Shown here piece by piece: positions 13,601 to 36,880 of a stretch of 64,000 nucleotides of DNA. Position 1 is the stretch's first letter; every line of letters begins with the position of its first letter. The translations under genes and the position numbers were made by a program. The notes below the pieces were generated by a model, which saw nothing but the letters and a program-made list of their open reading frames with translations, was not told where the DNA came from and made no database searches. Origin of the DNA: Botryllus schlosseri (lineage: Eukaryota); contig CM119371.1 of the NCBI GenBank assembly GCA_051294905.1, positions 14,200,001 through 14,264,000 on the forward strand, read 5' to 3'.

Positions 13601-16600
13601 CGCTATCTCGCCACGGCAATGATGAAGGTTACAGTATAGAATCATTTCCTCACCTTTAAACAAATCAGATGACGCGAAATGAAGTTAGCAAATCCTTATT
13701 TCGTCTTTTTTTGTACAATTGATCCAGCCACGGATCTTTACGCAAGCTCCTTATAAATTTCTCAAGGTTTTCCGCCCATTTATAGTTGGCGCCAGTGCAA
13801 AAACGTTTTGCTGGAACTTTTATGATAATTATTCTAATCTGAATATAATAAAAAACGAATGACGTTCGACCGTTGTCGCAGTACAGCTTACACTTCTCTT
13901 ATCGTAATTTCCAAGACCATAAGGAGTTTTAAAATCGTAGCTATTCGCGGTCGCATTTCGATTACTTATGTAGCCTACGGCCGCATTCCAGTGCATAAGC
14001 GTAACGAACTAACGGGGGCCAAATACCTTTGGTAAACTGTCCAATGTCCATGTTCATTTCCGATGAACTCCTGACTAATCTACTTTGTCATAGCGGCTTA
14101 CTATGCGCACCGAAATCGCGAGTTGCCATGTGTTGGAATAATTACTGGGACACGTCATGGTCGCGCCAAGCGCGAAATTTTTTTGAGATTCACAAATGAA
14201 TTTCGTCATTATTATTAGTAGATTTACATATTACCATCAAATATTGATCTTTTATAAGCACATGTGATCGGATTCATTGCTGGAGTGGATGGAGGTACTG
14301 TCTTCGAAAATTCAGGGCAGGTTACACACAATGATGCATCTTAGGGTGGACTCGTTGATATTAGTCATTTTGTTGCATGCAGTTATCATGGATCAGGACT
14401 GTCGGTGGGCTGAAGTAGAAATAAATTGGAATCGCCTAAACGTACGAGAAAAGAAACAAATTTCTTTCTTTCATGATTCCAAGTTGGCATGCCTATACGG
14501 GGTGCATCATTTTTTTTGCTGTTCACATCTGTAGGTCAACTGTGAGGCATGGATTGGGAAGGGCGCTACTATATTGAAATCGAAATATGAAGTATAGCAT
14601 TGAATTGCGCCTAGCGCGGAGAAAATTTTAAGATTAAATAAAATCTCTCAAAAATCCGGAAGTCAATTTTTAAATTCAATTTGCCAGTCGACGGCCACCA
14701 ACACATACTAATTAGATTACGTGTCAGGGTAGCACAAATTTCCTTCTACAGCCGCAGGTTGTTCTTCCCTGAGTTACATGAATATTAATATCAATTTGTT
14801 GAACTTGGAAGTTATTTCCTGCGCTTTGCTCGCATGATCATCACGCAACATCTATTTGACTTGATCGAGCATCATTGTAATTCAAAATAGGTAGCTTATT
14901 GTCTCTGCCGGTTTCCATCATGAATTGTAACATTAATAATCTGCTGATCATCTCTGACAAAAGAATGGAAAGTGAACACCCGGATGTTGGCTAATGAAGC
15001 TAATCAGAATGACCCACACATTGGTGGAGGAATCGGACATTTGATCCACCGTCGCAAAACCCCTAATGATTGCAGCCACTTGAATTTGTATTCTAAGATT
15101 GGGAAAATACCTTTGATTTATGTAATTTTGTAGATGATATCTCCGTATTACTGCTTACAGTACTTTGCCACACTATAGCTTGACATGTCATGATCTTTTG
15201 TTGTGGCTTGTGATTCTCCAATAATCCCGCATATTGTTTTATTAGCGCCTTCGTTGATTAGGCATAACATACATCGCTAACATGTGACACAAAGAAATTG
15301 GGTTGGAATCGGTGCATCTAAAATAATTAGAATATAAAATTTCCACATATCAAAAATAGAGCATTATCTGAGACGTTAGGCAGGTGCGAAAGTATGGAAA
15401 AAGTATCAAATATGGTATGGAAAATTGTAACTATGTTATGAAACGACTGAGACGGATATGGAGTATGGAAATTTTCCATTCCATACCATCCTACCATGCC
15501 CTAATTGTACATAACGTTGTACGTACGAATTTGATGGTTCCTGGCTCTCTGGCGTCATTAATATTTGCATTTTAGTAATCGGTGCAACAATAGCCCGCAA
15601 TTGATACTCGTTATCTAAAATTCTGATCTCGGGTCGTGTCCAGGCTTCCATCTAAAACAGAAATCAATTTAATAAAACCATGTTTAAAACATGTCACGCT
15701 CGAAATATCAGGATGCATAGATTTTGAATCAATTACGGGAAGATCTTACAAATCGTACTTTACAGGGAAAAGATTATAAAATCCAGTATAGACCTGGCGA
15801 TGTTCTTATTGTGGGACTGGTCCCCGTGCATAATGGCGAAAATGAGGATTGCTCAACCATACAGGAAGAGGGGATTCAAGCTGTAGAGACGATGAACATG
15901 ATAATCGACCAGGTATGAGTTTTCACCTCTCTAAAATTGATTGTCTGAATATTTATGCTATTCCGAAGTAGACGTGGTCATAAATAGGGTCGCATTTAAA
16001 ACGCAAATCGATTTAAAGGGGCACTGCCCTCTAAAATTAATGCGGTCTCAAATTGAAGGGCACAACGAAAAAAAATTTTGGCCGCAGCTGTTTTCTTCAG
16101 AACGCCACCGAAATGGAGCTGCAATTTATTGAAATTTCCACAAGAACTTCACGCTCCAACAGTCACGCAGAGATCGAACTTTATATAGTTATCAGCCGAT
16201 GTTATGAAAGAAAGGCTCCAGGCGTCTGTCACAAACAGACCAAAAATATGTTTAACCGGGACTACATCGCTATGCAGCATTTTTACGGTCGGCGGTCATC
16301 ATCATCAGAACATCCAACGTTCCAATGATCTATAACTACGTGCCATCACCGTTGAACCGACGACGATTTCAAGGGTTCCAATCACCCTACAGGCCTACAT
16401 TGAATACGTCGGATATATTTGGTGCAAACGCCCGCAGGCTGATACTACACACGTTTTTTTCGAAAGTAGTTACACAGTTATGGCGTAATTATACATCGTT
16501 TAAAAAAAAACAATTTTTTAAAAGGCATTTTTTAAAACAAATTTTAAAACATGTTTTAAACAAAGGGTTTTAAAACACCATTTGTTTTAAATGCAACTCT

Positions 16601-19600
16601 AGTCGTAAACCGGGATAATCCACACAAATATAGGTTCGTGTGATAGCAGTAACAAGTGAGAGGAAGGGTCTCGGATGAAGATCTTAAAAGTACTCAAGTA
16701 CTGCTATCAAGTAATTGAAGGTGATCGCTTTAAAATTGTAAGGTACATGTATCTCCGCAACCATCATTTGGAAGTGTATCATCGAAGTATCCTGACAAAT
16801 TTCTAAATATTACCGACCCAGGCGTACTGCCAATCCTCCCAAACGCACCGATGATTGCAGAATGCAGACCCACGATACGATTGAATTGTAACAGAATGTG
16901 CATTATGCCAGATCAACTCAGATACGGACATTCTGCCTGGAATCCAGCTGGGAAGCATTATAATCGATACCTGCTATTCTGACGCTGAAGCTGCGAGAAG
17001 GGTGAGACATAGCAGTGCATGCAACAGCTGTTGTGACGACTCGTGATTTTAAGAATCAGTTAGCAATCCAGCTGCTTTTATCTGTCTTTCGCTTGTCTAA
17101 TCTAGTATTTTTAATCTACACTTCTAATCGCCCAATTGTGTTTGATTTGATTCTTTAATTACTGTTTTCCTTGTTGTCTTATCTTGAGATATGTATCGTT
17201 CTCTTGAATCTCTACTCATTCTTCGACCATCGTAAGTTCAAGGAATATTCCGAATCTCGCTCTAGCATTTTCGTAGTTATATCAACCAAATCCCAAGTCT
17301 ACATTCTACTTCAATTCGGATTGTTTGGTATTAATAATTCGAATACAAGACAGATACCCAACGCATCCCTAGTACAAAAGGAAGTTTCAGCTCAGCAGAC
17401 GGGATGCGACGCCTGGAAAATCGGCATTCATTAGCCTTAGAGTGCCGCTTCGAAACAACAGCATTGGCATCAATCTATCGGAAGGGATTATGCACGAGAT
17501 ATTTGCACAAATCAGATAGAATTGAGCTCCCTATACCAGTGTTTTAGATATAATTTGTATCAATACAGTATAACTCTTCTAATCGCGAATCAGATCCAAT
17601 ATATAATTTCTGCAGGAAGCATAAGATTTCGCTATAGCGAATAGTATATTCATAAAACTTTTACATTGAATAATACATCGTACGTATTATTTCGTTTTTC
17701 TATAATCGATGGGCATTAATATTTGTGCATTATTTCTTTGTTTTCAATTTATAATTAAGAAACTGGAATTAACAAAGAGAACTGGTTTCTGTCAATGTGC
17801 CCATGTCCAACCTCTTGTGATATCAACTTCGCTACCGGCTCTGACAGCTATGTAGTACATAAAACATGTAATTGGATATCGACTCTGTAAGCGATATCTT
17901 TACGGATTACTACTATTCGACATGGATAAAATAACGCAGAATGATCTCTTCCGCTAATTTCGATTCTCAGTGAACGCGGTCTCGGATTGGAAGAGCTTGG
18001 AAATTAGCTTTCTACTGTCGATTCATAGAATTCGGCTTAGATGTCAAATCCGGAATATAAATTGCATTTGAAAAGATCCGATATACATTCGATAATTCGT
18101 ATACCAGGGCTCGGCAACTTCTCGTATGCAACGTGTCAAAATACTACAATCGAGAAATTCTGTTGCACTCAAAACGCGCAAAGTGCGAAGAAAAATTTTC
18201 AACATAATGAAAATCTATCTAAAAAAAACTCTACTTTATGTTGATTTACGAATAAGTTTGGGTCACTTTCGAGCTTTTCCAATTATGAAAACTTCTGTTT
18301 CAGTTTTAGCTATTTCACGTACCCGGGGTTGCCGACCACGTCGTATAGCATATGCATGGGCAACAGAATCAGTAAATATACGCTACATTTTATGATGATC
18401 AAGTGATATGTGAAACAATGTCACTAAGACGAAAACTAATCCAATTAAAATTCACTATATTTGTGCATTGCCAGCTAAAAATATTATGTCTCTTTGATCA
18501 CAGGTAATTTTGGATATTTTACCATTATTCTCGGACTGTGGTGCACGATATCCGAATCTGCAGACTGGTAAATCATCCCCGACTCTCGTTGCAGGTACTT
18601 GATACTCACGTATTGTTGTACAATTCGGCTTACCATTTGGCTTGTGAAATAGGGTGATGATATTATTATGTTATTACAGGACTACAGTCCGATTACTTGA
18701 ACCAAGGCCGTTAAGAGCTGTTCTTTTTTACCATCGACTACTACTTTAAAACTTTAAACACACTCTATCTCCCTGAGCGAGCTACGACTCCAATTCCAAC
18801 CAGTTCTGGAAAACAACTGCACTCCGACTAATATACCAAGGCCGCAATTGCAACGCCCTGAAGTCGGGTTTCAGCCAATTCCAAGGATTTGTTGAAATAT
18901 ATTATCGACTGAAGTGGTCGTTAAAACGGTTCACGGTTCACGGTTAACGTTTATAAAAATTCCTCGCTTGTTGTTTATGATACCAAAGATTCATTTCCGT
19001 GAATTATGTGGAATACCAGTTTAGATGAATGAATGCACTCACATCTAGGGCGAACGCCCACCATTTATCCACGCCTGCAACATCAATGGGTTGCGGGCTC
19101 AAGTCTGACCGAGGTCGACTCCAGAATTCCTATCTAAGTGTCGGATGTTTATCTGCACTCCTCCTCGCCATCTGAGCCGCGCAAGCGGTGTCTTAAAAAG
19201 CCAAGAAGTGGGTCGTACTACAAGTCGGAAGATATGGAATCAGAATAATGACAATCAGCCTGGTATAAATGAACATTGTAGTCGACAAACACCATGAATA
19301 GCACAAACATACAAACAAAAAAACAAACGCCCACCATTTACCAGTGTTGGGATCAAGTCACTACCTTCGAGTCACGAGTCATCTCGAGTCATTGCAGATT
19401 TTGACTCGAGTCAAGTCAAGTCAATCGATTTTCGAAAGTGACTCGAGTCAAGTCAAGTCACTCGATTTTTGGAGGTGACTGGAGTCAAGTCGAGTCAAGT
19501 CAAGTCAAGTCACGAGTCAAGTCACAATTCAAGTAAAATTGAATTTTCGAAGTAAGAGTGATGATTCAAAGTCATAACATTTTGCCAGCAGTGAGAAAGA

Positions 19601-22600
19601 CGATTAATTAGCCATTTATCTTGAATAAAATAACGAATATAAAGTTAAATATACATGCAAAATTGCATTGTATCGCACACGCACACGTAGAACAACTAAT
19701 AAAATACGTGAGTAACTGTATAGCTACATGCTACAGTATGTTATTAATGTTATTATCAGCCAAAATAGAGATTCGAATACGAAGCCTCGAGAAGTTCAAA
19801 CAAATTGATGTGGTACAATACACTACCAGCTATACATCCGTGAGAATATAAATGCATGAACTATATTCATTCTATTTAAATCATACAATATGGTTGGTAA
19901 AGGTGACCACTGCGCAATGTAAGCACTGAGCCGTTTACTACTTACTACTATACGGCAACGTAAGCTGTGATCATTTCGTCTGCGGCCAAGATATTTGTGA
20001 TGTACCAATGGAGGACCAGTGAAACGTACAATAATTGAATGACTGGTTGCTCTCACAAGTGCCACCGGCGTATCACTAATAATCCGACTATACACATGAT
20101 ACAGGGATTTGGTCGAGACTGTTTACTTATTGATGACTTGAAATTGACTCGTAAATTTTGCTCCGAGTCACGAGTCAATCCGCATTTCTGAAGCGCCGAG
20201 TCAAGTCAAGTCAAGTCATTTTTGCAAAGTGACTCGAGTCAAGTCAAGTCATACGAAAAAGTTGACTCGAGTCTGACTCGAGTCATCCCAACACTGCCAT
20301 TTACTCAAATAATGAACCACGACATGAATGTTTCAGCAACATACTCACTGTTTCAGGAGTTGTCGGTGCTGGAGCCAGTAGGGTATCAATTCAGGTGGCA
20401 AAAATTCTAAATGCTGTTTCAGTTCCTCAGGTAGGTAATATTCATTTTTCCGAGTCGACGTTTTCAGATTTGAACGTTACAAGAATCAGGCACCGGGGTT
20501 GGATTCGGAATATGTAATTTTAGTGGGTGCAACCGTCATGTGAAGATTTCTGATCAATTCGGATTAATTTAGTGTTTCAGCTGCGCACAGCGCCTTCGTA
20601 TCATACTAAAGAACAAATGCCTATTATGTTCTAAAAATGAACCAAGCTTGCTGGTAATCCAGAACGCGGGTGATTAGTCTCTAAATTTGTACATGAACTT
20701 TTAGATCCGGATTTCAAATCTTGATACGAAAACGGATCTGAATTTGATCGGGTTTCGAAATCGTCCGAACCCAATGGGTTTTCAGATCTCGCAAAAATAG
20801 TGCTCCATGCATATCTATCATAGCAATGCGGAATGGAGAACTCCAAATATGTCCGAATCGCCGTGGCAGACGCAACAAATAGTCAGTCACATTTATTGAT
20901 ATCGGCTACAGGAACTGAAACAAAACGATCTGAGTGTACAATGCATTTGATAAAAGTCATTATCTTTGTTATTACATTGTTATAAATATATTTTAGAAGT
21001 AAACGAATACCAGATCGGACGTTCGAAAAATCGATCCCTAATATAGAGCTATTTTGATGTATCTTGGACCTTAAGATGATAAATCTGATTTCAGGTCAGT
21101 TATTGGTCAAGTAGTCCGGAATTGAGCAACAAGCGCCTGTACAAGTACTTTTTCAGAGTTGTGCCTCCGGATGATAAGCAGGTGAACAATAACTATATTT
21201 CCGAACTAAACATCTATGTTCGAACGAAATCAATACTGCACAATCACCCCATGACTTTTACCCTTTTACGGTCGCGCATTCAGTACCTATTTCTCACATC
21301 AATGTGGGAGAAGAGTAGAACTGGGCAAAACCGAGTACCTGAGTGATCCGATTATGAATCACTTGTTATGCTCCGAGTTGATTATTCGAGTATCACTCAA
21401 TATGAAATCATTGCAGAATGTAATATATCAAAGTTCAAATATGTACCTTTTATGTCACCACAAAGACTATAATGCCTGTCATCTATGGTATTAAAGATTC
21501 TTTGGTATTTTTTCGACCATACCGATTTCATTGCAGTTTGCGACAAATTTGTGGGATGATCATGACTGTGAATGTTTTAATTTCCAGTTACGTTCGTAGC
21601 TTTGTATTATATGTTTCGTATGCTGCGCAGCGGTGGTCAAAGTAGTCAAGACAGCTACTCAAGTAGAAGTAGAAGTAGAGACGAAAAAATCTACTCAAAT
21701 ACTAGAAGTACTTCTTCCATAAGCCACCTAAAACTACTTGAAGTAGAAGTAGAATTGACTGACTTCAAATGTACTCAAGTAAGTTAGTAGTTTTGAAAAC
21801 AGTCTTAATTCGTTCGCATGGACTGTCAAAAGCCGCAAATTTAGCTATGCGAAGGTGCAGAGAGCTTGATTCGTATTGATACATCCCAGGAGGTATCAAT
21901 TTTCGACAGAATAAGCATTCTTCCGCATCATGGGATGCAAATTATAGTATTGATATGAAAATACGATACTAGCCTTTTGTTTACTAGACGACCCCGTTTT
22001 CGAGAATATCATGGCATGGCGCCCTACCCCATTTTATAAGGCCCCAAGTATAGGCGAAGAATAATACGGAGAAGTTGTATCGGATACGGTTTCAACACTT
22101 TGCGCGATTATTATACGTTAATAACAAATATTGTGGATCGTAAAATTTATATCAAGTGTAACTTCAATTTCAGAAAATAGAGGTATTACTACACTTGCTT
22201 TTATGCTTCAACATGTAGGCTATGTTCTGCAGACAAAAGAATTGAAAGTAATTAGAACTCAAAGTATGATACTCGGAATTGGAAGTGAAATACAAATACC
22301 ACGTCTAAAAAGCAGTAAATATATTTCATGTCTTTTGCCCATAAAGCTTCAAAGGTGATCTGCTAAAATAGGTGCAACGTTCAAAAAAGCCGGATTTTCC
22401 AGATTAGTAGGACACGTCATGGGCTGCTAGATTGCGAAACGGTAGTTTCAAACGTTATGGTGGGTCATATTTAGTGTGATGAAATATTTGATATGGGCGA
22501 CAATGCGGTATGAGCGGAACCAAGCAATCCGGTACCTAAATTATATTCACTGATACTTTATTCTCACTCCATAACTACTGTGCGCGGAGTGCAACAAAAT

Positions 22601-25600
22601 TTCTGGGCTTTACTTGACTTTTAGGAAAATTAAATGACGATACTCCGTTAAAAAAGTCCCGGAATTCCTCAGGCTATCTTTCGTATTGGGGGATTGAACT
22701 ACTTCTACTTGACAAACTGAAAATAGCGAGAAGTAAGTAGATCACAAAATATTACGAAGTAGAAGTAGAAGTAGAGAAAATCAGATCTACTTGAGTAAGT
22801 ACCAGAAGTAGAGGAAAACTACTTGAGTACTTTCAAAAAGTAGAAGTACTTCGTTAATGATCACCTCTGATGCTGCGATACGGCCAATCAAGGTTTCAAG
22901 GCTCTCACAGGGGAAGTAGTATCGTAACTATAATTCTCGTTGATAAATTGACCTTCAGTGGCGATGAGCGTATACTTTCAGTACTCGTAAAAATCCTATT
23001 TTACTCTCGACTCGAATGATCAAAATTAATACTCGATTAGGATTCGAGTATACTCGAATCATTGTGCCCAGCCCACAGACGAGGAGTTGTTGAAGTGGAT
23101 AATTGCCAACAATGGAAACGATGATGCAGTCGGTTTTATTGATACAAAATTTACACACAAATTGGTTTTCTTGATTAAGTTGACTGATTTGTGTTAGGCA
23201 GCAATTTGATTTCATATTATAATTCTACCTTTATGGGTGCTGTAAGATGTATGGTAACATTAATCTAGGAACAGTAACGCACCCACATTGCTTCGCGATA
23301 TAATGAGAAATATTTTTTTTTCATCAGGTGGAAGCAATTATTGCACTCACGAAACAACGCGGATGGAGCTATATATCAATAGTGTATGATGACGATTCGT
23401 ATGGCTTGAATGGCTTGCATGGTAAGCAATTGAGATATGAAATCAATTAGAGCTCCCGCTACTATAACTATAGGCTACTATCGATATCCATATACCCTAT
23501 AATTTGGATATAGCCTACCTTTACTCAAGACACGCATAGTAGTGCGGAGCTGATCGACAAATTATCTGGTCCTACTTCGATCCTGTTTTTATAGCTCTGG
23601 TCCGACTCCTATGCTGGATTTTAGTAATGAACATGATCCGGTCCGGAAAACTCCGATAATAATTATCTACATACAGGAATGTATTGAATATTGATTAAAA
23701 CAACGCACGCCGGACATTAAAAACTCAAGAATCAAACCCAACACTTATCTGAATTAATTATGCCAATTTGGACTTGACATGTAATTTATTTCCATGAACG
23801 TTTCACTTGAAGTATTGATTCGAGGGTAGAAGAGGGTAAGACTGTGATATTATTAGTAAAGAGTACTGAACGACTCCCGGCCGTATCAGAAACAGAACTG
23901 ATCCGGCTCCTGAGAAAATACCGCCGGATATCCACTCCGGCTCCGGACCATGCTCCGCCCTAACGCAGAGGCCAATTTACGCATACAAAATCATGTCCTA
24001 CGAAAGGCTTTAATGTGGAAAGAGTCACTATCTTTTCTTCTATTTTAAAGAATAATGATGATGATATATTAAAACTGGTGTATTCCTGTAAAATTCGATT
24101 AAATCAATGAATTTAAATATGATTCTATATAATAAGGTCTCTGAATAACGTTTTCTAGTGGTGCATCATTTCCAGCAACCGAACCAACTGATACCTATGT
24201 TATAACACCTATGAAGGTGGCCGAGGCGTGCTTGTAAATTCCCAAATCGTTTTTGCAAATACGAGGAACAACCGGTAAATCATAGGGATGGTGTGAACGT
24301 GAGGTTCACGTTCGCGTTCTGTGTGTGAACCTCAGAAATTCAGAGGTTCACGTTCACAAACGAACCTTGGTAGGTTCTGCACTGTGAACCTTTTTCATGT
24401 ATGACAACTTTCACTTCATTATAACACCCTTGGTTGAAATTTACTGCATTTCAACTGCAGGTCACTCCATGCATGGCGCTTGCAGAATAAAAAATCAACA
24501 CTAAACGAGCATGTAGCTTGACAATCTCATTAGTTTTACTTGCTTCGTTACAAAAGTTTGCTCGAAATATCCAGTTATCCGTTTGTGAATATTTAGTGAC
24601 TCTCTGCTGTCAGTTTGACCAGCTATTACATAACATCAAGAGCGAAATACACCATATGTACCATGGTGAGCGAATGATGCTTATTCAACCATTCACTGAA
24701 ATTGATATCGTTGTCTGATGTAAAAAAAATCTAGCAGGCGTACGGGGTCAATCTTGACTTCATATGTTTATTGTATCATAAAAACCAAATCCATGCGATT
24801 GGGGTGTCGGCTAGTGCTGTATAACTTGGTAATGGGATAATATAGGTAGCAAGATTAAAAACCCATTTTACACTCTGCTCGATATCAACGTGGCAATACT
24901 CAGTCGCGCGGTCCATTTCTGGTCCGCGGTCCCGTTAAGGCGTAAGCATATATTCCCTTGCAAGTCCTCGTCGGAATTGTGGGCAAAGCGAAGGAAGATA
25001 TTGATTTTATGGAATTATTGTATCATTTGATTACCCCAGTTGATACATTTATTAATATAGCGTTTGATTGCCCCAGTTGAAAGATTTGGAGGCGTTTAAT
25101 ATACGTCAATATGTACTTCAGCATTGTGGCATTTTGTGGGCCGAGTCGTCGCTAGGTATCGTGTACCCTGTACACATTAATATAGGCTATCACTTCACTG
25201 AAATATAGGGTAGGAATTAGCAATATGACGTCACATGACGCCAAGAGGTTCACGTTCGCGTTCACACAGAACCTTTCAAAAAGGTTCGCGTTCACGCGAA
25301 CATGAACCTTTCAGAGGTTCACACCAACCCTAGTTAAATCATTTGCTGTGCAAATTCAGAATTACAAGTCCAAGCGGAAGACGAAGGAATCTGCATTGGC
25401 ACGTTTCAGCCGGTTCCACGTACAGCAGCCGATCAGGATTTCCGAAATATTGTTGAAAGTTTACTGACAGAAAAATCAAAAGGTGCATGCTGCATTAAAA
25501 CCGTTATAAGAGCGCTACAAGAAACATAATGTCTCTATTTCCCTTTTGCCTCTACATTTCGTTCTCTATATTGGCGATGAGCAACGTAGGTCAGGACAAT

Positions 25601-27597
25601 TTCAGTACAACTATGATTGGACTGACACCCTTTGTGAATCGGAGTATAGCGGCAAGACCGGAAACTGTCTGTGGGCCGCTCAAAATCCCGTCGCGGGCCG
25701 TATGTTGCCCGCCCCTGGACTAAAATTTGTGTTTGATCGATACCGCAATACAATTCTGATGAAGGTTTTGTTTTCGTGTATCACCTTCAGGACGTGAATA
25801 CACATTAGGGCTCTTCAAAAATGACTTTTTTTCTCAAATCGTACTGGCTACTTGATAAAATTGTTAGGTTACCTAATTTAAGCCTACACACAAAATGTGG
25901 TTCAATTCCAGCCAGTAACCGCTTTGCTACAGGAGAAGAAAGTTTCTATTTATTATATAAAAATAAATAATAAAAATTTTGAAAATTTTCTGTTCACCCC
26001 ATGAAAGTGTTAGGCTGTCTATAGAAACGATCCTCACAAAATTTGGTTCAATTCCAACCGGTGAAAGCGGAGTTATTGCACTCGAAAAATTTTGATTTGA
26101 ATAAAATGGTATTTACGGTGAGCACAACTATCATACATAAACAAAGAATCGGTCATCGTAAATAATATTTTATTCAAATCCAAATTTTTCGACGGTAATA
26201 ACTCCGCTTCCACTGGTTGGAATTGAACCAAATTTGGTGAGCATCGTTTCTATAGACAGCCTAACACTTTCATGGGGTGAACAGAAAATTTTCAAATTTT
26301 TATTATTTATTTATATATAATAAGTAGAAACTTTCTTCTCCTGTAGCAAAGCGGTTACTGGCTGGAAGTGAACCAAATTTTGTGTGTAGGCTTAAATTAG
26401 GTAACCTAACAATTTTATCAAGTAGCCAGTACGATTTGAAAAAAAAGTCATTTTTGAAGAGTCCTAATACACATACTATTCGCTTAAACTGCAATACGTT
26501 GCTATCTTTGCCACGATAATTACAATATGCATAATTGTTCGTGTAACAGTCGTGGTGATGTTCACAAGTAGCTTGTCGGCGTCCAGGCTGATGAAGGCGT
26601 CGGCAAAATACATGGAGAAAGCGACAGACCTCTTGTGGGTTGGTAGCGATGCCTGGACCAATACAATTCCTCTTTCAAACTACCATTTCGATGATAGACC
26701 TATGCATGGTATTTTGCATCCGTTGGGTTTTCCGTTACACCATGTATTCGCACAATCTTGTGTTGCAGGCGCGGTGGGATTCCAACCTGCGGCACAAGAG
26801 CTGAAATCATTTCGACCATACTTACTCAATTTAACCCTGGAGGAAAGTCTGAACACGTCCAGAAATCCATGGTTTTCGGAGTATCTGGAGCACGTAAACT
26901 TGTGTACCGTAGGTGCGAAATGTAAAACCTGACTTACCAAAAGCTGTAGAGACCAGCGTGTAGCCTTCCGCCATCTGCAGTGTCGCACAAACTGCTCTCG
27001 TATGTAGCCTATTTCTAGACGTCATCTCATGCCACATAATTCATCTGTATTTCAAATTATTTCGAAAACGTTATTTCTTTATCTGCATTTAGCATCAACG
27101 TCAACATTCATCCCCGTGGCTAAAATTTATCATCTCAAACTATACACCACCCCGGGAGCACATATCCGATATTAATCTCCTATATTCAGAATTTAAAGTG
27201 AGATATTAGATCGTAAATATTTGTTTACCTTGGTGATAGTGAATAATTCCGGTGGTGAAGCGTACGTGGTGGCATCGCACATGAGTTTGGCGGGTGAGGG
27301 TCTTACCCAAGCGGCACGGCACTGAGCGTTATAGAGAAATTTATAAACCGCCTTGAAGTACAAATTACGTAGCGTACACTGACGAATTGAGATCACGTTG
27401 GAGACATGCAATACGGCTTATTGAGTAAAGGACTACACCAGTGGTTCCCAACGTGGGCGATATCGCCCCCCAGGGGGCGATTTGGCGATCTAGGGGGGCG
27501 AAAATGACGAAGGGGGCGATAGGGGGGCGAAAATGGACAAAGGGGGCGACGGGGGGCGAAAATAGCGAAGGGGGCGATGACGCGTCAAAACGGCTGA

Positions 27598-27631
<34 letters not shown>

Positions 27632-30600
27632 TCATCCACCTAGCAATTCGGAGAGAAAAAACGTTATTTGCAGCTCTGAGCGGAGAAAGATGACCTTTTT
27701 TTTTTTTTCTTAGTCAACCCGCCGGTGATTACAGTCTGTATGCCCAATTATCGGTGCACAAAATTTTGGGGGGCGATGATCGGTGTTGGCCTTGAAAAGG
27801 GGGCGATGGGTCGAAAAAGGTTGGGAACCACTGGACTACACTGATAGTATTCAAATCACGACACTGCTCGGGATTTGAGATTGAAATTTTAGTCCAAATC
27901 CATATCTAGAACTCTCTCAAGTCCAAATCCGGCCGCTTGAAAATCCCACAGCATTGGAAATTGCATGTCCAAGTCCGAATCCAAAACACCGTCAAAACAA
28001 TAATAAATCCTGATCCAAATGTGCCCAGTTTTTCAAAACCGTCATTACAAGTCCAAATCCAACACCGTGCTCTTCTCTGCTGTTCTCTCATTGATGGGGC
28101 TTACTTGTTGAAATAACACCAGCGGTTTCACACCTATTAACGCAATAATGCATAATGACGGGATAAAAACTCTGCCTTGTACACCCACAGGAGACAATGG
28201 TTCAGGAAGGAAGTGCGATCCCAATGAGAAATTGGATCCAAATTCGTTTGAAAAGAGACCAACTTTAGAGGTATAATATGTATGATTCGATTTGGTTATT
28301 TCAGCAGAGATTGTGGCCCTGGAAGATCCACGAGTATAGTTGTCGATCTAAAGCAAGTGCCTCACCTTCTCGCGACCGGAAAATGTACTAAGGGAGATCG
28401 TAGCGAAAGACGACATGTTCAAAACTTTCGGCGATAATTGAAAAAATAATTTTCACACTAAGCCGGTGTTGGCATCATTTGTATTCCACGTTCTCGGTAT
28501 GACCGGGAAATGGAGATCGTGTTGCTAATCCCGGTACGCGTGGGTTTTGTGTTGACTTCCGATCATGGTCAATGTAATGGATATACAGCTTGTCAAGGAC
28601 CAAGGAGTCATGCCACTTAGACAGGTTTAATGGATAAAATAACTTGTGACGGCTGTGACGGAATGCAGTTCACACGAACAATGCGGTGCAGTGAAGAAGT
28701 ATTGGACTATGCATTGTATTCCTTGTCGACAAAGTTGTACTTAGCATTAATTGCATTCGGTAAGGCAAATAGTTAAAGTGACACTGTATGGCAATGTTTC
28801 TTGAACGCATGGGTAATTACCCCCGTAGGGGCAATATAGCAGGAATTTGGAGTGATGCAGTGGCGCTCTAATTGTGACCCTGCTTTACCAACGGTAGTTC
28901 TGGTGCGGGTTCGGATCTTGGTCACTACAGCTGTGATATTCTGCTTGCGCAATGCTTGTTGCAACTAGCTTTTGCTGGTAATTGCCCTTCCCATTAGCCT
29001 GTGTTTCGCTGTGGAAGCACTCCAGTCTTATGCCTATTTATTAAAGAATTTTACCTCCAGTTAATCGTATGCATTCCGTTGTAGCATGTTGGAAATGCTA
29101 TGCTTGCGATTATACACGCACTGAGACAGTTCCACGCTTCCGAATGCAATGGGATTCCGGGATTGTGTCCAGCCATATCGATGCATAATGGAACAAACCA
29201 TCTGGCCACAAAGCTGATTCCCATATTGAAGCGGATTAACTTCACAAGTGAGCTGGTCAACGTACACTCGTACAGTAATGTATTGCGGGGCAAAGGAATT
29301 TGGACATGGCGAAATGTCTATAATCATTTAGTACGTAACAAATGCATCGTAAATCGCTTGAAAGTTTAGCTGATCATTCCACAGATTGAGTTATCATCTG
29401 TTCGAACTATAGAAAACTCGGATCGGGGCCCCACTCGCAGTCATTTTGAAGTATAATGACACGTGTGTCCTTTGCGCAATAAAATAAATAGCGAATTGCA
29501 AGAAATCGTCATCACCTAATCAATTTACGCTACCTGTATGGACAGATGCCAATGGAAAGCATGTGTATTTCGACTCGAACCAAAATGGATTGGCAAGCTT
29601 CTATGTATTTCGTTACGACGCCGGTAAAGAAGTTACAACCGGAACACTCAGACAAAGATGGGAAATAGTAGGAGACTACGATAACAAGGGTATAGTATTT
29701 TGTTTCATCTAGTTTTAAGGTTCATCATACCAACTACTGACAACCATTATACTATAATAATGCGCACTGTACCGATCTTTGACCTCTGGGGTGCGCTGTG
29801 TTTCCGCAATTGGGACTGTTAAGGCATGTCCCGCCGCTTCTAATTTTAGGAATCGTGTCCAACTCATACGACAATGTCTTGGAATGACTTAGAAACGGCA
29901 CGGAACCCTAAAAGGTTCGCGTTTGAATTGACAATTCATTGACCTGGAAACTATACATTTGATTTGCTCCGATTGTACATATGTAGGGTTGCGGGTTGAC
30001 CTTCCATAAGCACGTTTGCCGATGACCGTGGAAGCTCTGACGTTTTAACGAAGCTAGAAATAGAACTAGAGCTACTTACGTTTAAAAACTAGAACTATAG
30101 AACAGGAATTTACGCCCTTTAAAAATCCGAAAATGGTCTCACTAAAACGCACTAGCTAATAACATACAATACGAATTACTGAATGCAACTGAACGAAGAA
30201 ATATTGGGGATAAAATCAGCATCTAAAAAGGACGGGGTTTCGTGTTTGAAATGAGAGCGGTTTCGACTATTAAAAGTTACCTCTTGACCACTGCTAGTAG
30301 TGATGACTCTGACCTAGCAATTGCTGCAAGAACATTATACAACAAAACAACGTCATCATGAGTCACCCTAAATGTCAACACGTGTTTTCTACAATTGTTC
30401 TACAACTAAATGCATTTTTAAATGCGCAATTAGAAGTACTCACTTTTCAAAATTAGCATCTAGAACTACTAAAACGGTAGTTAGTTGTCCGTTAACTACG
30501 TAGATTGTAAGTTTGTACAAGTTTGGTTCCAGTTCACACTTCGCTATGCTTTCTGTAAACAGCCATAAGAGTAAAGACTGCGCCGAATTCGAAACTGAAT

Positions 30601-33600
30601 ACCACGGAATCAGTATGCAGTAAGCCATGCGGCTACGGGGAGGCTACAGTCCAACAAGATAAGGTCCGGGCGTGAATATCATGCGAGAGAAAACTATTCT
30701 GAATTTTTCCACCCCGTGTTTGCATTCAGATATGCTGCTGGCATTGCGAGCGATGTGCGTACGATGAGTTTGTGTCGGAAAACGACACAATGTGTACCCG
30801 CTGCCCGCCTGGTGAAAAACCCAACTCCGAGAAAACTGGCTGCGATCTGATTACGATCACGTATGCTACTGCATGAGTGTCACAAATTATGGCCTAATGA
30901 ACCGTAATGTAAAACAACATTTTCAACCAAAGATGTTATAATGACGTTAAAAAATTGTGGTATATGAAAAAGGTCCACAGTGCAGGCCTACCACGGATCA
31001 TTTGCTAACGCGAACCTTCAAATTTCGGAAGTTCACACACCGAAAGCGAACGTGAACCAGACGTTCACATTATCCCTACCATCTGCTCTACGAGAATTAG
31101 AGGTGGTCAAAGTAGTCAAGAAAGCTACTCAAGTAGAAGTAGTGACGCGAAAATCTACTCAAGTGCTAGTAGAAGTACTTTTTTCATAAGGAACCTGAAA
31201 CTACTTGAAGTAGAAGTAGAATTGACTGACTTTAAATCTACTCAAGTAAGTAAGTAGTTGTGAAAACGATCGTAATTCGTTCGCATGGACTGTCAAAAGC
31301 TCTAAATTGGGGTATGGGGAAAGTGTAGAAAGCTTGATTCATATTGATGCATCCCACTTGGTATCAATTTGTGACAGAATAAGCAGTCGTCCACAGCATG
31401 TGATGTAAATGATAGAGTATTGATATGGAATGCGATACTAATTCTTTGTTTACTCGAACACCCCGTTTTAGAGAATATCATGTCATGGCACCCTCCCCCA
31501 TATTGTAAGACCCCTAGTTCAGTCGAAGAGCAATACGGAGCAGTTGTGTCGAATACGGCTTCAATACTTTGCACGATAAGAATACGTTAATTAAAAATAT
31601 GGCAGATCGTAAAAATGCCATATAGTAAATAGCTTTATTTTTGGAAAATATAATGCATTGCTACACTTGCTTTTATACTGAAACATGTATGTTTTCCTGA
31701 CAAAAAAAAACAGAAATTATAATTAAAATTCAACGTATAATACTCGCAATTGAAAGAAAAATACAAATACCACTTCTAAAAAGAGGAAATATATTTTATG
31801 TCCTTTTTCCAGAAAGTTTCAACGGTGGTCCGCTAAAACAGGTCTAGCGTTAAAAGTCTAAGTACACTTTTCCAGATTAGGACACGTCATGGGCTACTAG
31901 GTAAAATAGGTTATTGCTAGATTGCGAAACGATAGTTTCAAACGTTATGGGGGACCATACTTACTGTGATGAAATATTTGTTATAGGCGCAACCATGCAA
32001 GCCGGTATCTAAATTAGGCTATATTCAGCGATACTTTCGTTAAAACATACTTGTCACTCCATATCTAGTTATCTACTGTACGCGAAGTGCAACAAAAATT
32101 CTGGGTATTACATGACTTTTTTGAAAAATAAAAGTCGGTAATACGTGAAAATAGCCCCGAAATTCCTTCGGTCATCTTTCTTATTGGGGGATTAAACTAC
32201 TTCTACTTGACAAACTGAAAATAGCGAAAAGTAAGTAAGTAGTTCACAAAATATTACGAAGCAGAAGTAGGAGTAGCGAAAAAAGATCTACTTGAGTAAG
32301 TACCAGAAGTAGAGGACAACTACTTGAGTACTTCGAAAAAGTAGAAGTACTTCGTTACTGACCACCTCTGACAAGAATTGGCTGAGAGTCGAATGAGACT
32401 TACGCTGTGTGCTCTGCAAGATTCAACCACGAAAAAAAGATTCAATTGCGAAGAAGCGGTGTCAACAATCTCAGTGATACGTTCTGTATACTATATATGA
32501 TATGAATGCATTCACGTGAAAGTCGTTTGGTTAAGTTTTCATGTGAAGTCGGAAGGGGTGCGTAATACAAAATATCGTTACCCAAGTGAAACGGGGAGTG
32601 ATAGGTTGGGAGCCACTGTTTTCGAGGTACTGTACGAGCGGGGATTTTACTGAAAAACATGTATTTCTGAAAATAGGTTTATTCAGAGCCATCATAACTA
32701 GCATGACAAGTATGAATTTCGTGACCGAGCGAAATTGCTTAGCGTGTCATTGTGTATGCCTGTGAATTGGATGTCACTTCTGCGCACAATTATAATTCAA
32801 TAATAATTTGCGAACGTTAAGACGGCACTTCAATCGCATTAACATCTATTAGAAGTAATTTACTTTCAGTATTTCTTTCTAGAGAGATATCTTATGAATC
32901 TGAATACGGCATTGCATGCGCGTGGCTGGGTTGCCTTGGACTGCTTCTAACATCAATTGTGACGGTGACATATATCGTTCATCGAAAAACGATCATGGTC
33001 AAGTCTTCCGGGAATGTAAGTATAGTATATTAGCGTGTATTATACGTCGTAAATGATAATGCAATGTTATTCGTATACAATGCAATATCAAGACGAATAT
33101 AATATACTTTATCGATAAGGGCAAATTGGGACGTAAATAGCTACTAAGTATCCATTGACTCAAATAGTGAATTCGTCTCTTCAGAAAGCTCTTATCTGAA
33201 TATGTCTATCAATTATAGCTGGAAACGGACCTGACCACGTATTTTGAATACTTATGTGCCCCACGGCCGCATTCCAGGACATAGTCCCAATGCACTAACT
33301 GGACACCAAATACCCATGTTAAACTGTACATGTTCATTTCCGGTGAACTCCGGTCTAATCTACTTTTTCACATCGTCTTACTATACGCATCGAAATCTCT
33401 AGTGGTCATGTATTGAATAGTTGCAGGGTGTTGTTATGGTCGCGCAATGCGCGAAAAAATTTTCAGATTCACGAATGAATTTCGTCATCAATATTAGTAG
33501 TTTTAGATATTACTATCAAATATTTATCCTTTCTCAGCCCATGTGATCAAAGTCAGCGATAGAGTTTATGGAGGGAGTGTTTTCAAAAGTTTAGGGCAAG

Positions 33601-36600
33601 TTATAAATGATGATGCATATTAGAGTGGGCCAATTGCTATTAGTCACTATGCTGCACGCTGTTATTTCTTGACCTCTCATCAAGATTGTCGGTATAGTGG
33701 TAAGATATTGGAATCTCCCAAACGTACCAGAAACAAATTTCCTTCGTGAGGAGCGCACGTTTCCAAGTTGGCGTTTCTATATCATGCATCATTTTCTCCC
33801 GCTGTTCGCATCTGTTCTGCACTCTGGGGCTCTGATTGCAAAAAGGGGTACTACATTAAAATCGAAAAATGAAGGTGCAATGAATCGCGATGAGCGCGAA
33901 GACAATTTCAATAGCAATTAAATTTCTCAAATATTAATTACTGACTCAAAAATTCGGGAGTCAATTCGTACATTCAATTTTCATCTCGACGGTCGCCAAC
34001 GCATACTAGTTTAATTACGTGTCCACGGTAGCACAAATTTCCTTCTACGACCGCAGGTTTCCTACCTCTGGCTTAGTTCTTTTAACACTCTGTTTATTGA
34101 GAGGTCATTTTGCGCACCTGCAATCTATAGCGATGTAGTAGATGTGTATTGTGGTGAATTTTTGTTTTTATGACTTATGGAAAATTTGGGGTTCCGCGAA
34201 GGCTTGAAGATTAGCGTAAGTGTCCGCCGGTTATTAAAGATGGAGAACCGCTGTTGAAAACCTTGCCAAAAACTGCTGCCAAAACTTGAGCAGGCCCTAC
34301 GTAAAAACACCTCATCAGAAATATGTCGGCGCTTACCGTGTTTGACAACATGCGGAGTCCCAATCCGACTCAATATCAGTTCAGCAGTGGTCTTCATGCT
34401 CGTGTAACTCAACACCTCAATATTTTTTAATGAAAATAGTTTAAAACTCCAAACACACGACTTTATTCCAGGAGCTCAGTTTCTTCATTCTCTTCGGAAT
34501 AACTGTGAGTTTCCTCAACTTTCTCGCCATGACTGCATCTCCCACTCTCGCATCGTGTGTCACGGCAAGGATCATTCTTGGCGTAGGACCAGCGTGTATA
34601 TACGCCGGTTTGCTAACGAAGACCGTGCGAGTCGTCATCATTTTCAGGTCAAGATCATCTCTATCCAGACAGGTATCGTTCTATTTATTGATTAATTCCT
34701 GCTATATTTTGAACGCAAGGTATTCGATATCACTTAAGCAAGGATGTAAAAAGTGGGTTGAGCATGACTTGGACTTGAAACATGCGTCTCTTCAGCATAT
34801 AATTTTATAACCCAAATCGAAACATAGCCCTGAAATTAACCCTTATATCTATCCTAACCCCAAGCCTAACCATAACCCAACCATAAATCCACCTATTACC
34901 AACCCATAACCCGTTATTTGACCAAGATGTTCATGTTTCGGAAGCCCAATTGTGTAGGGTTACCATATTTTGGAATCGGTAAAGGAGGACACTATTTCAA
35001 AATTTTCAAACTTGGAATCCCGGAGGAAAATCTTTAAAAAATGGCAAATTTTTCCCACTTCATGGTCGGTTGAATGAAAAAAGGTCAAATTCCTCGCTCA
35101 GTGCCCAAAATACAGTTTTTTCATATTATCAGGTGACTGACAAAAAAAGGTCAACTTTCCTGCTCAGCTCCCGAAATAGCCGCCGGAGCTTTACTTTAGT
35201 GCTGATTTACTGTATTTCGATCGATTTCACCCTACATTTAACAAGAATTCTAAAAATAGAGGACAGAATCTCAAAAAATAGGACATTTAAGCGTCCTTGG
35301 AGGACATTTTCAATAACCTGAAAAAAAAAGAGGACAAATCCTCCTAAAGGAGGACGTATGGTAACCCTAAAATTGTCGCATGCTGAAGTGTCGCATGCTA
35401 AAATGTCTCATGCTCATACGTGCACAGACCGTTCCATAGCGATGACGATCATAACATTGGACACAGTATGTATTAACGGTGCTATCCAACACTGTTCCAA
35501 GTTTCCTAGGGTTACCATACGTCCTCTTTTAAGAGGATTTGTCCTCTTTTCTGAAAGTGTCCTCGGAGGTCGCCCTTTTGTCCTCCTTTTTGAGATTTTG
35601 TCCTCTTTTTTGAAAAGTTAGGTCACATTTAGAGCAAAATGATGCGAGTGATGTGCCGTAAATTAGCACAGAAGTGACGCTGCGGCGGGTATTTCGGAGT
35701 GACAAACGGTGATTTGAACTCTGAGCTAAAAGTTGACCTTTTTTTTTAGTCAACCACCTAGCAATGTGTAGAGAAAAACGGTATTTTGAGCTCTGAGCGG
35801 TAAGTTGACCTTTCTTGTAGTCAACCGATCACAAAGTGGGAAAAATTCACCGATTTTTGAGAATTCTTCTCCGGTTTTGCAAGTCTCTAAATTTCTGAAA
35901 AAGTGTCCTGTTTTTAGATTTCCGAAATATGGTAAGCCTAAAGTTTCCAAGATTGACACTTAAACATAACGGTAGTAATTCAGTCATCAAAGTCGAATAT
36001 GTTGATATGTGTGCCGATCTAGCCCCTTTCAATCCCTATATTCCACGGTATGTGTCGATTTTGACGGTGAGATTTCGGATGGTATATCTCGATGATGTCT
36101 TCTAATAGTGTGGTACGTTTAACGATTGGAATGCAAATATATATTAGTTACTTTTATGTTTTCGAATGTCGATTTCGCCACAAAATTACAGAATGTTACA
36201 GATTAGGTGCATTAATTACATTATACTTTATGTTTTACTATTCTACATATATAAATTCTCTATAGATGAAGTTGTTTCTGCAACCGAGCTATCAAATCGC
36301 CCTGACGTCAGCACTTGTTATGGTACAAGTTATCGTGGCGGTGCTGTGGCTCATTCTTAGCCCGGTCGCCATCACCATGCATTACCCAACACTCGAAGTG
36401 GTATACCAAGGCTGTGCTCATCTGGTCGACCTCCAGGTTCTTCTGGCAATGACATATCCGCTTTTGTTAATCACCGTATGCACTGTGCTGGCCACTCTCA
36501 ATAGAAAGATTCCAACTGAATTCAACGAAACGAAGTACATCGGTGAGTTGGGATAATTTTGTAACGGTTTTTTGTTTTATTCAGCAAGATCTCTCAATTT

Positions 36601-36880
36601 CTAGGATTCTCCATGTACTCGACTTGTATTATCTGGTTGGCATTTCTGTCTATATTCATCACAAATACCGAAGATCTCAGTCAACGGGTATAAGATTTAC
36701 TGAGTACGGAGTTTTCCGAATAAATCGACCTGGTTTCGTTACGTTAAGGTTCTGACAACGTCGATTTGTGTGAGTCTCAGCGCAACTACTGTGTTGATAT
36801 GTTTTTTTGGACCAAAGTGCTTTAAAATCATATTTCGCCCTTCGTTGAACAACATGAACTCAGTGCTGTCGCCGAAGTGA
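1605..36880 (+). CDS. Class C GPCR, metabotropic glutamate receptor-like, 21 coding exons, about 840 aa (C-terminus possibly longer by splicing)
   Basis: Manual GT-AG, phase-consistent exons: 1605-1647, 2564-2589, 15766-15912, 16912-17001, 18504-18594, 20357-20430, 21095-21181, 23328-23421, 25360-25482, 26550-26708, 26769-26912, 28191-28270, 29085-29247, 29546-29689, 30563-30663, 30730-30860, 32883-33015, 34472-34672, 36266-36542, 36605-36687, 36749-36880. Motifs: signal peptide MIALHVLAALASMFGIIGIGS; PGDVLIVGLVPVH; ILPGIQLG..IIDTC; GVVGAGAS; PQVSY..SPELS; YFFRVVPPD; WVGSDAW; RNPWF; nine-Cys domain ESVCSKPC..CCWHCERC..CTRC..GC; LLTKT; FNETKYIGFSMYSTCIIWLAF; FGPKC. The first two exons and the stop are less certain than the core. 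Confidence 0.92.
3471..3756 (+). mobile_element. tRNA-derived SINE, full length
   Basis: Head with A box TAGCGCAGTGG and B box GTTCGAGTC; body shared with six other copies; C/A-rich tail; TSD CACTGTGT. Confidence 0.85.
4369..5560. repeat. About 98-bp degenerate tandem repeat (3-4 units) interrupted by a MITE
   Basis: Unit AAGTTTTAGAAAGATAT..TTTCGTACCGCGACT..CTATTGGCTAAA..GTTACGTAAAACT recurs at about 4370, 4467 and 5410. Confidence 0.7.
4534..5370. mobile_element. hAT-like MITE carrying an internal SINE fragment (about 4786-4900, minus)
   Basis: TIR CAGGGGCGGGCAAC / GTTGCCCGCCCCTG; perfect TSD CTATTGGC. A solo terminus of this family is at about 25670-25717. Confidence 0.85.
6132..7382 (-). 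mobile_element. 1.25-kb hAT-like non-autonomous element, AGTA-rich family, copy A
   Basis: TIR CAGAGGTGGTCA / TGACCACTTCTG; perfect TSD TCGTTCTG; subterminal GTAGAAGTA and TACTTGAGTA arrays; homologous to copies B-D. Confidence 0.9.
8778..8900 (+). mobile_element. Degenerate fragment of a second tRNA-headed SINE family
   Basis: TAGTGTAATGA (A-box-like) ... GTCGTGGGTTCGCTCCC (B-box-like) followed by a non-tRNA body; single copy in the window. Confidence 0.4.
9624..9833 (-). pseudogene. hAT-type transposase C-terminal (dimerisation) remnant
   Basis: QPTTVAIECSFSILGKLLNKDRNF resembles the hAT C-terminal PTSxxxERSFS motif; no intact upstream frame. Confidence 0.65.
12218..13060 (-). pseudogene. 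Decayed P-element/THAP9-like transposase core
   Basis: 280-aa ORF with P-transposase-like motifs LVGFVDLG, ARGL...PLAYY, FDPPHLLKTVHNNL, KLT.AH, AQLLSNSVA, FNKWFDIMN. Truncated at both ends; lies antisense in intron 2 of the class C GPCR. Confidence 0.85.
13339..13615 (-). mobile_element. tRNA-derived SINE, full length
   Basis: Near-identical to 3471-3756; (CAAA)n tail; 13-bp TSD GCAATGATGAAGG. Confidence 0.9.
13655..13825 (-). pseudogene. Probable THAP zinc-finger remnant of the same P-like element
   Basis: Minus strand reads IKVP..W.. then, after a frameshift, IRIC*LHFASSDLFK (THAP-type CxxHF with a stop), followed by a GTGAG donor; it is upstream of the transposase core. Confidence 0.5.
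13960..14770. repeat. About 0.8-kb interspersed repeat, copy 1
   Basis: Collinear with 33245-34070 (ACGGCCGCATTCCAG ... AGCACAAATTTCCTTCTAC); termini not resolved. Confidence 0.7.
15985..16601. mobile_element. TAGGGT-ended MITE
   Basis: Ends TAGGGTCGCATTTAAAAC / GTTTTAAATGCAACTCTA; TSD GTCATAAA/GTCGTAAA. Confidence 0.75.
19068..19325 (+). mobile_element. tRNA-derived SINE, 5'-truncated and diverged
   Basis: Body matches the family; 15-bp TSD AACGCCCACCATTTA. Confidence 0.85.
19342..20296. mobile_element. hAT-like MITE with (AAGTC)n / GACTCGAGTC subterminal arrays
   Basis: TIR CAGTGTTGGGAT / ATCCCAACACTG; perfect TSD CCATTTAC. Confidence 0.9.
21628..22869 (+). mobile_element. AGTA-rich hAT-like element, copy B
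   Basis: CAGCGGTGGTCA ... TGATCACCTCTG; perfect TSD ATGCTGCG. Confidence 0.9.
23540..23962. mobile_element. MITE with TCCGG subterminal motifs
   Basis: TAGTGCGGAGC / GCTCCGCCCTA; TSD ACGCATAG/ACGCAGAG. Confidence 0.65.
24283..25332. mobile_element. MITE with GTTCAC/GTGAAC subterminal arrays
   Basis: TAGGGATGGTGTGAAC / GTTCACACCAACCCTA; near-duplicated flanks GGTAAATCA/GTTAAATCA; related fragments near 900-975, 1445-1490, 31005-31080 and 51330-51600. Confidence 0.8.
25806..26466. mobile_element. Palindromic (fold-back) MITE, 661 bp
   Basis: TAGGGCTCTTCAAAAATGAC ... GTCATTTTTGAAGAGTCCTA with inverted arms of about 300 bp; perfect TSD ATACACAT. Confidence 0.9.
27439..27833. mobile_element. 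hAT-like MITE with GGGGGCGA repeats and poly-T
   Basis: TIR CAGTGGTTCCCAAC / GTTGGGAACCACTG; perfect TSD GACTACAC. Confidence 0.9.
30040..30490. repeat. Degenerate CTAGAA-rich element
   Basis: Antiparallel similarity to about 46830-47550 (GACGGGGTTTCG, GTGATGACTCTGA, AACTAGAACT arrays). Confidence 0.55.
31098..32370 (+). mobile_element. AGTA-rich hAT-like element, copy C
   Basis: TAGAGGTGGTCA ... TGACCACCTCTG; TSD ACGAGAAT/ACAAGAAT. Confidence 0.9.
33245..34070. repeat. About 0.8-kb interspersed repeat, copy 2
   Basis: Collinear with 13960-14770. Confidence 0.7.
34955..35369. mobile_element. TAGGGTTACCATA MITE
   Basis: TIR TAGGGTTACCATA / TATGGTAACCCTA; GAGGAC motifs; TSD degenerate. Confidence 0.8.
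35507..35940. mobile_element. TAGGGTTACCATA MITE, inverted relative to its neighbour
   Basis: TAGGGTTACCATA ... TATGGTAAGCCTA; perfect TSD AAGTTTCC. Confidence 0.85.

Follow-up and report, generated by a model that had tools for sequence, protein, structure and literature searches.

A class C receptor gene of the ascidian Botryllus schlosseri from the tunicate GRM clade: a likely class IV (mXR-type) member predicted to bind a non-glutamate amino acid

The 64,000-nt stretch of Botryllus schlosseri DNA analysed in this work (assembly GCA_051294905.1, contig CM119371.1, positions 14,200,001-14,264,000 of the forward strand; hereafter the window, with positions counted from its first letter) contains on its plus strand a gene of 20 exons (15766-38376), all introns of which show GT-AG ends on inspection of the splice sites. 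The joined exons form a single open frame of 836 aa, in which a Venus flytrap domain (VFT) is followed by a nine-cysteine domain (the cysteine-rich domain, CRD) and a seven-transmembrane domain (7TM), i.e. the layout of G protein-coupled receptors (GPCRs) of class C. The sole stop over 837 codons is the terminal one, which led us to reject the reading of the gene as a pseudogene. We propose that it encodes an intact ascidian receptor that belongs to the "GRM" clade of tunicates and is likely a rapidly evolving member of class IV (mXR-type) of the metabotropic glutamate receptors (mGluRs); its predicted ligand is an L-amino acid, but not glutamate.

Single exons used as queries matched the Pfam families ANF_receptor, NCD3G or 7tm_3 in 10 of 16 cases, in colinear order along the profiles, and a profile built from 14 relatives and compared with the six-frame translation of the window recovered 17 of the 20 exons at E<0.03, with no further match below E 0.7 anywhere in the window. 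Because of these two results, the six motifs from which an mGluR-like receptor had originally been predicted (GIQAVETM, GAGASRV, VSYWSSSPELS, DDDSYG, GSDAW and FEKRPTLEHV) are not chance occurrences; all of them lie on the plus strand, within exons 1, 4, 5, 6 and 8 and at the junction of exons 10 and 11 (28270/29085). The nine CRD cysteines, the conserved third inner loop and the Pro-Lys of TM7 are all kept. The span given in the original prediction (15766..29247) begins at the first exon that we found but closes too early, as the gene continues for about 9 kb to the stop at 38376. Word-indexed protein searches with single exons gave no match, which is weak evidence. Exons 3, 10 and 20 were placed by phase, exons 3 and 10 also by alignment with ascidian relatives.

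In mGluR1, S165, T188, Y236 and D318 hold the alpha-amino/carboxyl group of the ligand, and R78 and K409 hold the distal carboxylate. Residue numbers throughout are those of mGluR1; for R78, K409 and positions 165, 208 and 236 they follow the study of Ramos-Vicente et al. 2018 (PMC6307864). Pocket positions were located with guinea-pig mGluR3 and fish mGluR5a as references in an alignment of 38 rows, and for single exons with PDB chains. A by-eye alignment had kept S165, Y236 and D318, with Ser for T188; the 38-protein alignment and the pairwise alignment with PDB mGluR7 agree with it, and D208 is also kept, so that all five positions of the amino-acid clamp are retained (T188 as Ser). The proposed Ala at R78 recurs in the 38-protein alignment and in the pairwise alignment with PDB mGluR2 (E 0.019), and the proposed Trp at S186 in that with PDB mGluR7. 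Thr at K409 is found in three multiple alignments, gap-free from the site into the next helix; this is the weakest of the pocket calls, as its exon alone has no PDB match and was missed by the profile. Positions 78 and 409 thus carry Ala and Thr, and not Arg or Lys, in the proper alignment. Two residues had been overlooked, namely an Arg at position 407, two residues before 409, and a Glu at the position of Y74. The loss of R78 and K409 from a pocket that keeps the clamp predicts that the receptor likely senses some amino acid that is not glutamate.

An aromatic residue at 186 occurs in none of the 11 rows with Arg78 and in 14 of the 21 rows without it (32 mGluR-like rows, one of 33 being gapped at 78), which is a pattern and not a statistic, as the rows are related. 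It suggests that the aromatic ring may fill the space of the lost Arg side chain.

Relatives were collected by an exhaustive search with the TM4-TM5 exon (295 matches at E<=0.001, of which the best 150 were used) and by a profile search (32 matches). Among the best 150 of the 295, the closest named full-length proteins, with 38-40% identity, are "mGluR4/7-like" receptors from Clavelina lepadiformis (XP_076817387.1), Styela clava (XP_077973472.1 and XP_039261395.2) and Ciona intestinalis (XP_078484401.1 / UniRef100_F7BFE1). The predicted fold of Styela XP_077973472.1 (mean predicted local distance difference test score, pLDDT, 79.3) matches mGluR structures. These ascidian proteins share with the Botryllus protein the domains and the retained clamp; R78 is absent from 5/5 (A, A, T, L, S), Trp or Phe stands at 186 in 5/5, and Lys409 is absent from 4/5. 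Among the five, the Botryllus protein alone has Ser188, Arg407, Thr409 and Glu74. Every ascidian paralogue differs at positions 74, 407 and 409, an indication that their ligands may differ as well. Styela has four such genes in tandem, in contrast to Botryllus, where the 64-kb window holds no tandem paralogue.

The core idea, loss of the residues for the glutamate tail in an ascidian receptor, is already in print for Styela: Zhang, Dong and Yang 2022 (PMC9138782) report that the Styela clava GRMs keep the five backbone-binding residues and lose the two gamma-carboxylate residues, suggest that they may prefer other amino-acid-like molecules, and liken them to DmXR of Drosophila. For DmXR, it is reported that the amino-acid contacts are kept and the gamma-carboxylate contacts lost, that glutamate does not activate it, and that L-canavanine does, which requires the T188 equivalent, while the 20 standard amino acids do not (PMC2695807). 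According to Ramos-Vicente et al., all class IV proteins are without R78 and K409 (PMC6307864). These two papers bear out the statement in the original prediction that the mXR/DmXR receptors have lost both basic residues. The class IV tree of PMC6307864 includes no tunicate, and in the open-access literature we found no statement that tunicate GRMs belong to class IV. What we add is that the ascidian GRMs probably belong to class IV, the mGluR branch that vertebrates lost.

The alignment of 38 rows served for a tree of class C receptors, CaSR proper and GPRC6A not being among the rows. The main tree (LG+C20) and the approximately unbiased (AU) tests used 25 of the 38 rows, 13 long or redundant branches being left out; a 7TM-only tree used 23 rows (15 left out), an outgroup-free tree 19 rows (19 left out), and a FastTree run all 38. 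The insect rows are the only ones whose class IV label is anchored in the published class (by the fly mangetout segment and by "mGluR B" names). The ascidian clade including the Botryllus protein has a support of 100/100 in the main tree and in the tree without outgroup, and 100/99 on the 7TM alone; within it, the Botryllus protein stands loosely beside the two Styela paralogues (85/69 and 88/83). A branch with support of 98/99 in the main tree shuts the clade out of classes I-III. Union with group III, as implied by the database names mGluR4-like and mGluR7-like, is rejected (AU test, p=4.7e-6), and the ascidian clade does not group with the CaSR-like branch (CaSR-like, V2R and T1R rows), from which a 100/100 branch separates it. 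For a union with class IV, the AU test gives p=0.19 when all class IV-type rows are taken and p=0.24 for the mX subgroup, both compatible with the data. When the CaSR-like outgroup is omitted and the 19-row tree is rooted on a Nematostella mGluR, the ascidian rows are united with those of class IV type at 100/99, a result that holds only if this single cnidarian sequence is a true outgroup. Beyond the pocket, every ascidian row (5/5) and every class IV-type row has a Pro in TM5, which is found in 0/11 rows with Arg78 and 0/5 outgroup rows; a Trp at the end of the VFT follows nearly the same split.

The receptors of known class resemble the Botryllus protein to different degrees. The class IV / mXR proteins (Drosophila DmXR, mangetout) have, like it, Ala78 (in the fly protein), no Lys409, an aromatic residue at 186, the retained clamp and the TM5 Pro, but the identity is only 30-34%, the mX rows carry Thr188, Glu407 and Gln409, and the placement of the Botryllus protein inside class IV depends on rooting. 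The canonical mGluRs I-III (guinea-pig mGluR3, XP_005003700.1; fish mGluR5a, XP_048851213.1) share the VFT-CRD-7TM layout and the clamp and supply the best single-exon PDB matches, whereas in them Arg78 is present, residue 186 is small and Asn/Asp stands at the site of the TM5 Pro. The CaSR-like, V2R and T1R sensors also have an amino-acid clamp without Arg78 and often Phe at 186, but they differ by a low identity (22-27%), Glu instead of Asp at 318, and the separating branch mentioned above.

Several observations weigh against the assignment of the receptor to class IV and against its departure from glutamate. With the CaSR-like outgroup, the ascidian clade is basal, outside both I-III and IV (85/90; 84/93 on the 7TM only). 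The AU rejection of a union with classes I-III plus two ungrouped rows, which speaks for the assignment, is weak: its p=0.022 comes from one of four AU tests on groups named after the first tree and would not withstand correction. Of the 22 columns that separate mX from I-III, the ascidians go with mX in 6, with I-III in 4 and with neither in 12. The row set samples class IV without amphioxus or hemichordate members, and also lacks CaSR proper and GPRC6A. Regarding the pocket, the aromatic residue at 186 is also found in 4/5 CaSR/V2R/T1R outgroup rows and may be ancestral; position 409 is still Lys in the Ciona protein; and four group III-like receptors of invertebrates (P0150, P0193, P0121 and P0073, from hemichordate, crab and nematode) combine Arg78 with Leu or Tyr at 409. 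The latter indicates that invertebrate mGluRs have commonly lost Lys409, and together with the Ciona Lys409 it means that K409 alone is not diagnostic. Finally, Arg at 407 occurs in the Botryllus protein alone among the five ascidian proteins and leaves room for compensation of the lost R78 and K409.

The original prediction had left it open whether the receptor is convergent with mXR or related to it. If the ascidian receptors formed an mGluR lineage of their own, early-branching or specific to tunicates, which has the same non-glutamate function and shed the basic residues separately from class IV, this would account for the basal position in the trees with outgroup, for the independent ascidian clade that also appears in the work of Zhang et al. 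(PMC9138782), and for the residues at 409, which are T, F, Y, I and K in the ascidians vs Q in mX. Nonetheless, the AU tests do not reject the grouping with class IV, the two join at 100/99 once the distant outgroup is removed, and the TM5 Pro and the VFT-end Trp that they have in common lie outside the pocket. Moreover, with 0.83 changes per column, the length of the ascidian stem invites pull to the outgroup, and we read the basal position as such long-branch pull. On these grounds kinship with class IV is the better supported of the two, without being settled; judged from the sequences, descent from class IV appears considerably more probable than a separate origin, and we regard the convergent lineage as unlikely.

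Two further explanations concern the ligand and not the descent. The pocket could be re-wired and yet bind an acid, if Arg at 407 and the Lys that adjoins it at 406 replaced R78 and K409, in which case glutamate, aspartate or a sulfonate such as cysteate would activate the receptor. Both basic residues are present in the sequence, and 407 is Asp/Glu in 8/11 rows with Arg78, as expected for a pocket-adjacent position, but no other ascidian protein (0/4) has a basic residue at 407, Trp186 and Glu74 would oppose an anionic tail, and the 38-row alignment reveals no basic residue in the receptor at positions 74, 110, 164, 292, 293 and 323. A literature search on the roles of pocket positions turned up nothing on position 407. 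We consider such an acid-binding receptor improbable. Several class C subunits act as ligandless partners (GABA-B2), and the flytrap might likewise hold no small ligand, the protein being either silent within a heterodimer or a subunit with constitutive activity; P0125, a relative, has indeed lost Y236 and D318. For the Botryllus protein this seems very improbable, as 5/5 clamp positions are kept (with one Thr to Ser change) despite an identity of 30-34% to canonical mGluRs. In the FastTree run, P0125 itself (869 aa) falls on a very long branch with the ascidians (support 1.0); its pocket, with Asp at 78 and Arg at 186 besides the two losses, is more radically altered than that of the Botryllus gene.

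If the receptor is an amino-acid sensor, then by analogy with the solved mGluRs it would work as a dimer, and the alpha-carboxyl and alpha-amino groups of the ligand would be held by the equivalents of S165, T188, D208, Y236 and D318; the flytrap would close, and the CRD would pass the change to the 7TM, thereby activating a G protein. Judging from the residues alone, the distal pocket, with Trp186 and without Arg78 and Lys409, would no longer suit a gamma-carboxylate, and the best-fitting side chain may be neutral, or basic if it reaches Glu74. Since the 20 standard amino acids do not activate DmXR, the ligand of the Botryllus receptor may also be an unusual one. Coupling to Gi/o may be extrapolated from canavanine detection in the fly, as given in the title of PMC3646046. 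The Styela GRMs are reported to be expressed in the larval anterior trunk and, in the adult, more strongly in siphon, endostyle and pharynx than in the ganglion (PMC9138782), which fits a peripheral sensing role; by extrapolation from these relatives, the Botryllus receptor may have a peripheral chemosensory function.

The exons are listed in Table 1. At the 5' end, relatives carry 33-50 extra residues ahead of the first exon found here, and no convincing candidate for a signal-peptide exon is present in the window upstream of 15766: a candidate at 14331-14441, which sits in a repeat recurring near 33.6 kb, and another near 10459 were not accepted. In the read runs X8 and X9 (guessed to be RNA), contigs begin or end, within longer records, at predicted exon edges (26768-26910, 29247, 29546 and 30728-30860), which fits splicing without being proof of it; no exon-exon joint was found among the best 15 of 312 read-contig rows, in which intronic repeats dominated. 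Several exon bins had zero depth in the raw reads, which carries no information on expression. The 60-base intron at 26709-26768 is in frame and stop-free, and its retention would add 20 residues to VFT lobe 2; one contig of run X17, which may be DNA, crosses it unspliced. The Cys of exon 3 may form an inter-protomer bridge. The predicted tail ends with Thr-Ala-Ile, which corresponds to the class I PDZ-binding pattern, its exon (38316-38376) having been placed by phase only. A tblastn match at 60714-60890 (E 0.03) contains stops, has no profile support and was taken as chance.

Table 1. Exons of the Botryllus receptor gene, with pocket residues (mGluR1 numbering; codon positions in brackets) and the support for each exon
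Exon and encoded region	Position	Strand	Support
1, first found, VFT start; Glu at Y74 (15868), Ala at R78 (15880)	15766..15912	+	AG/GT ends; PDB mGluR2, E 0.019; profile, E 1e-12
2, VFT lobe 1	16912..17001	+	ANF_receptor positions 13-40; profile match
3, variable loop; Cys (18537)	18504..18594	+	needed for phase 0-to-1 link; aligns with Styela and Ciona; missed by profile
4; Ser at S165 (20377)	20357..20430	+	splice ends and frame; 38-protein alignment; profile
5; Trp at S186 (21104), Ser at T188 (21110), Asp at D208 (21170)	21095..21181	+	PDB mGluR7, E 1e-4; ANF_receptor, E 5.9e-6
6; Tyr at Y236 (23400)	23328..23421	+	ANF_receptor, E 6.6e-5; 38-protein alignment
7, VFT lobe 2	25360..25482	+	splice ends and frame; profile
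8; Asp at D318 (26648)	26550..26708	+	PDB mGluR7/8; 38-protein alignment
9, VFT	26769..26912	+	PDB mGluR7/8; X8 contig fits 26768-26910 and extends past both ends
10; Arg at D407 (28256), Thr at K409 (28262)	28191..28270	+	frame and phase; aligns with Ciona and Clavelina; weak alone
11, VFT helix following the K409 loop	29085..29247	+	profile, E 3e-9; X8 and X9 contigs
12, VFT end; Trp (29659) common to class IV-type proteins	29546..29689	+	profile; X9 contig fits 29546-29688 within a longer record
13, CRD start	30563..30663	+	NCD3G positions 2-20, E 0.017
14, CRD; nine Cys across exons 13-14	30730..30860	+	NCD3G, E 2.1e-6; X8 contig fits 30728-30860 in a 652-base record
15, TM1	32883..33015	+	7tm_3 positions 2-42
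16, TM2-TM3	34472..34672	+	7tm_3, E 1.1e-10
17, TM4-TM5 and third inner loop; TM5 Pro (36458) common to class IV-type proteins	36266..36542	+	7tm_3, E 3e-14
18, TM6	36605..36687	+	7tm_3, E 0.0033
19, TM7	36749..36876	+	profile, E 4.7e-12
20, probable last coding exon with stop, short tail	38316..38376	+	phase only; no homology or read support

On the minus strand, a converging neighbour gene (41911-54818) contains LDLa modules (49855-50859) and rhodopsin-type 7TM exons (43949-44587, 41911-42720 and probably 45524-45865), and from its sequence we identify it as a predicted LDLa-repeat GPCR of the kind known from Ciona. A P-element-like transposase remnant (TNP-like RNase H and GTP-binding domains) lies on the minus strand at 12218-13066, about 2.7 kb upstream of the first exon found, possibly inside the first intron of the receptor gene. 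A long inverted-repeat element with high repeat read depth occupies 25808-26471, in the intron before exon 8, and has a further copy at about 41.2-41.7 kb.

As a single gene, the receptor adds one ascidian member to a pattern published in 2022, and its value lies in placing the family. For the five proteins examined, pocket and trees contradict the database names (mGluR4-like, mGluR7-like) as well as a Ciona circuit study which treats ascidian GRMs as glutamate receptors orthologous to the vertebrate ones (PMC11419600). It is conceivable, if doubtful, that class IV is the sole mGluR class retained in tunicates, classes I-III having been lost, the reverse of the situation in vertebrates; the basis is five proteins from four species, without the very divergent Ciona mGluR1/2/3. 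Should this bolder reading be true, the ascidian "mGluRs" would be no glutamate receptors; they would form a small and diversifying group of chemoreceptors for amino acids, in which every paralogue has a distal pocket of its own, and their glutamatergic roles in the Ciona connectome would have to be reconsidered. They would also be candidate receptors for larval settlement cues such as taurine: a report on taurine-driven ascidian larval settlement states that the receptor is unknown, and suggests neurotransmitter receptors with altered pockets (PMC12922724). The only class IV ligand that we found in print is a plant toxin, and if the ascidian GRMs are of class IV, this class survived in the sister group of vertebrates, which would provide a chordate handle on an orphan class.

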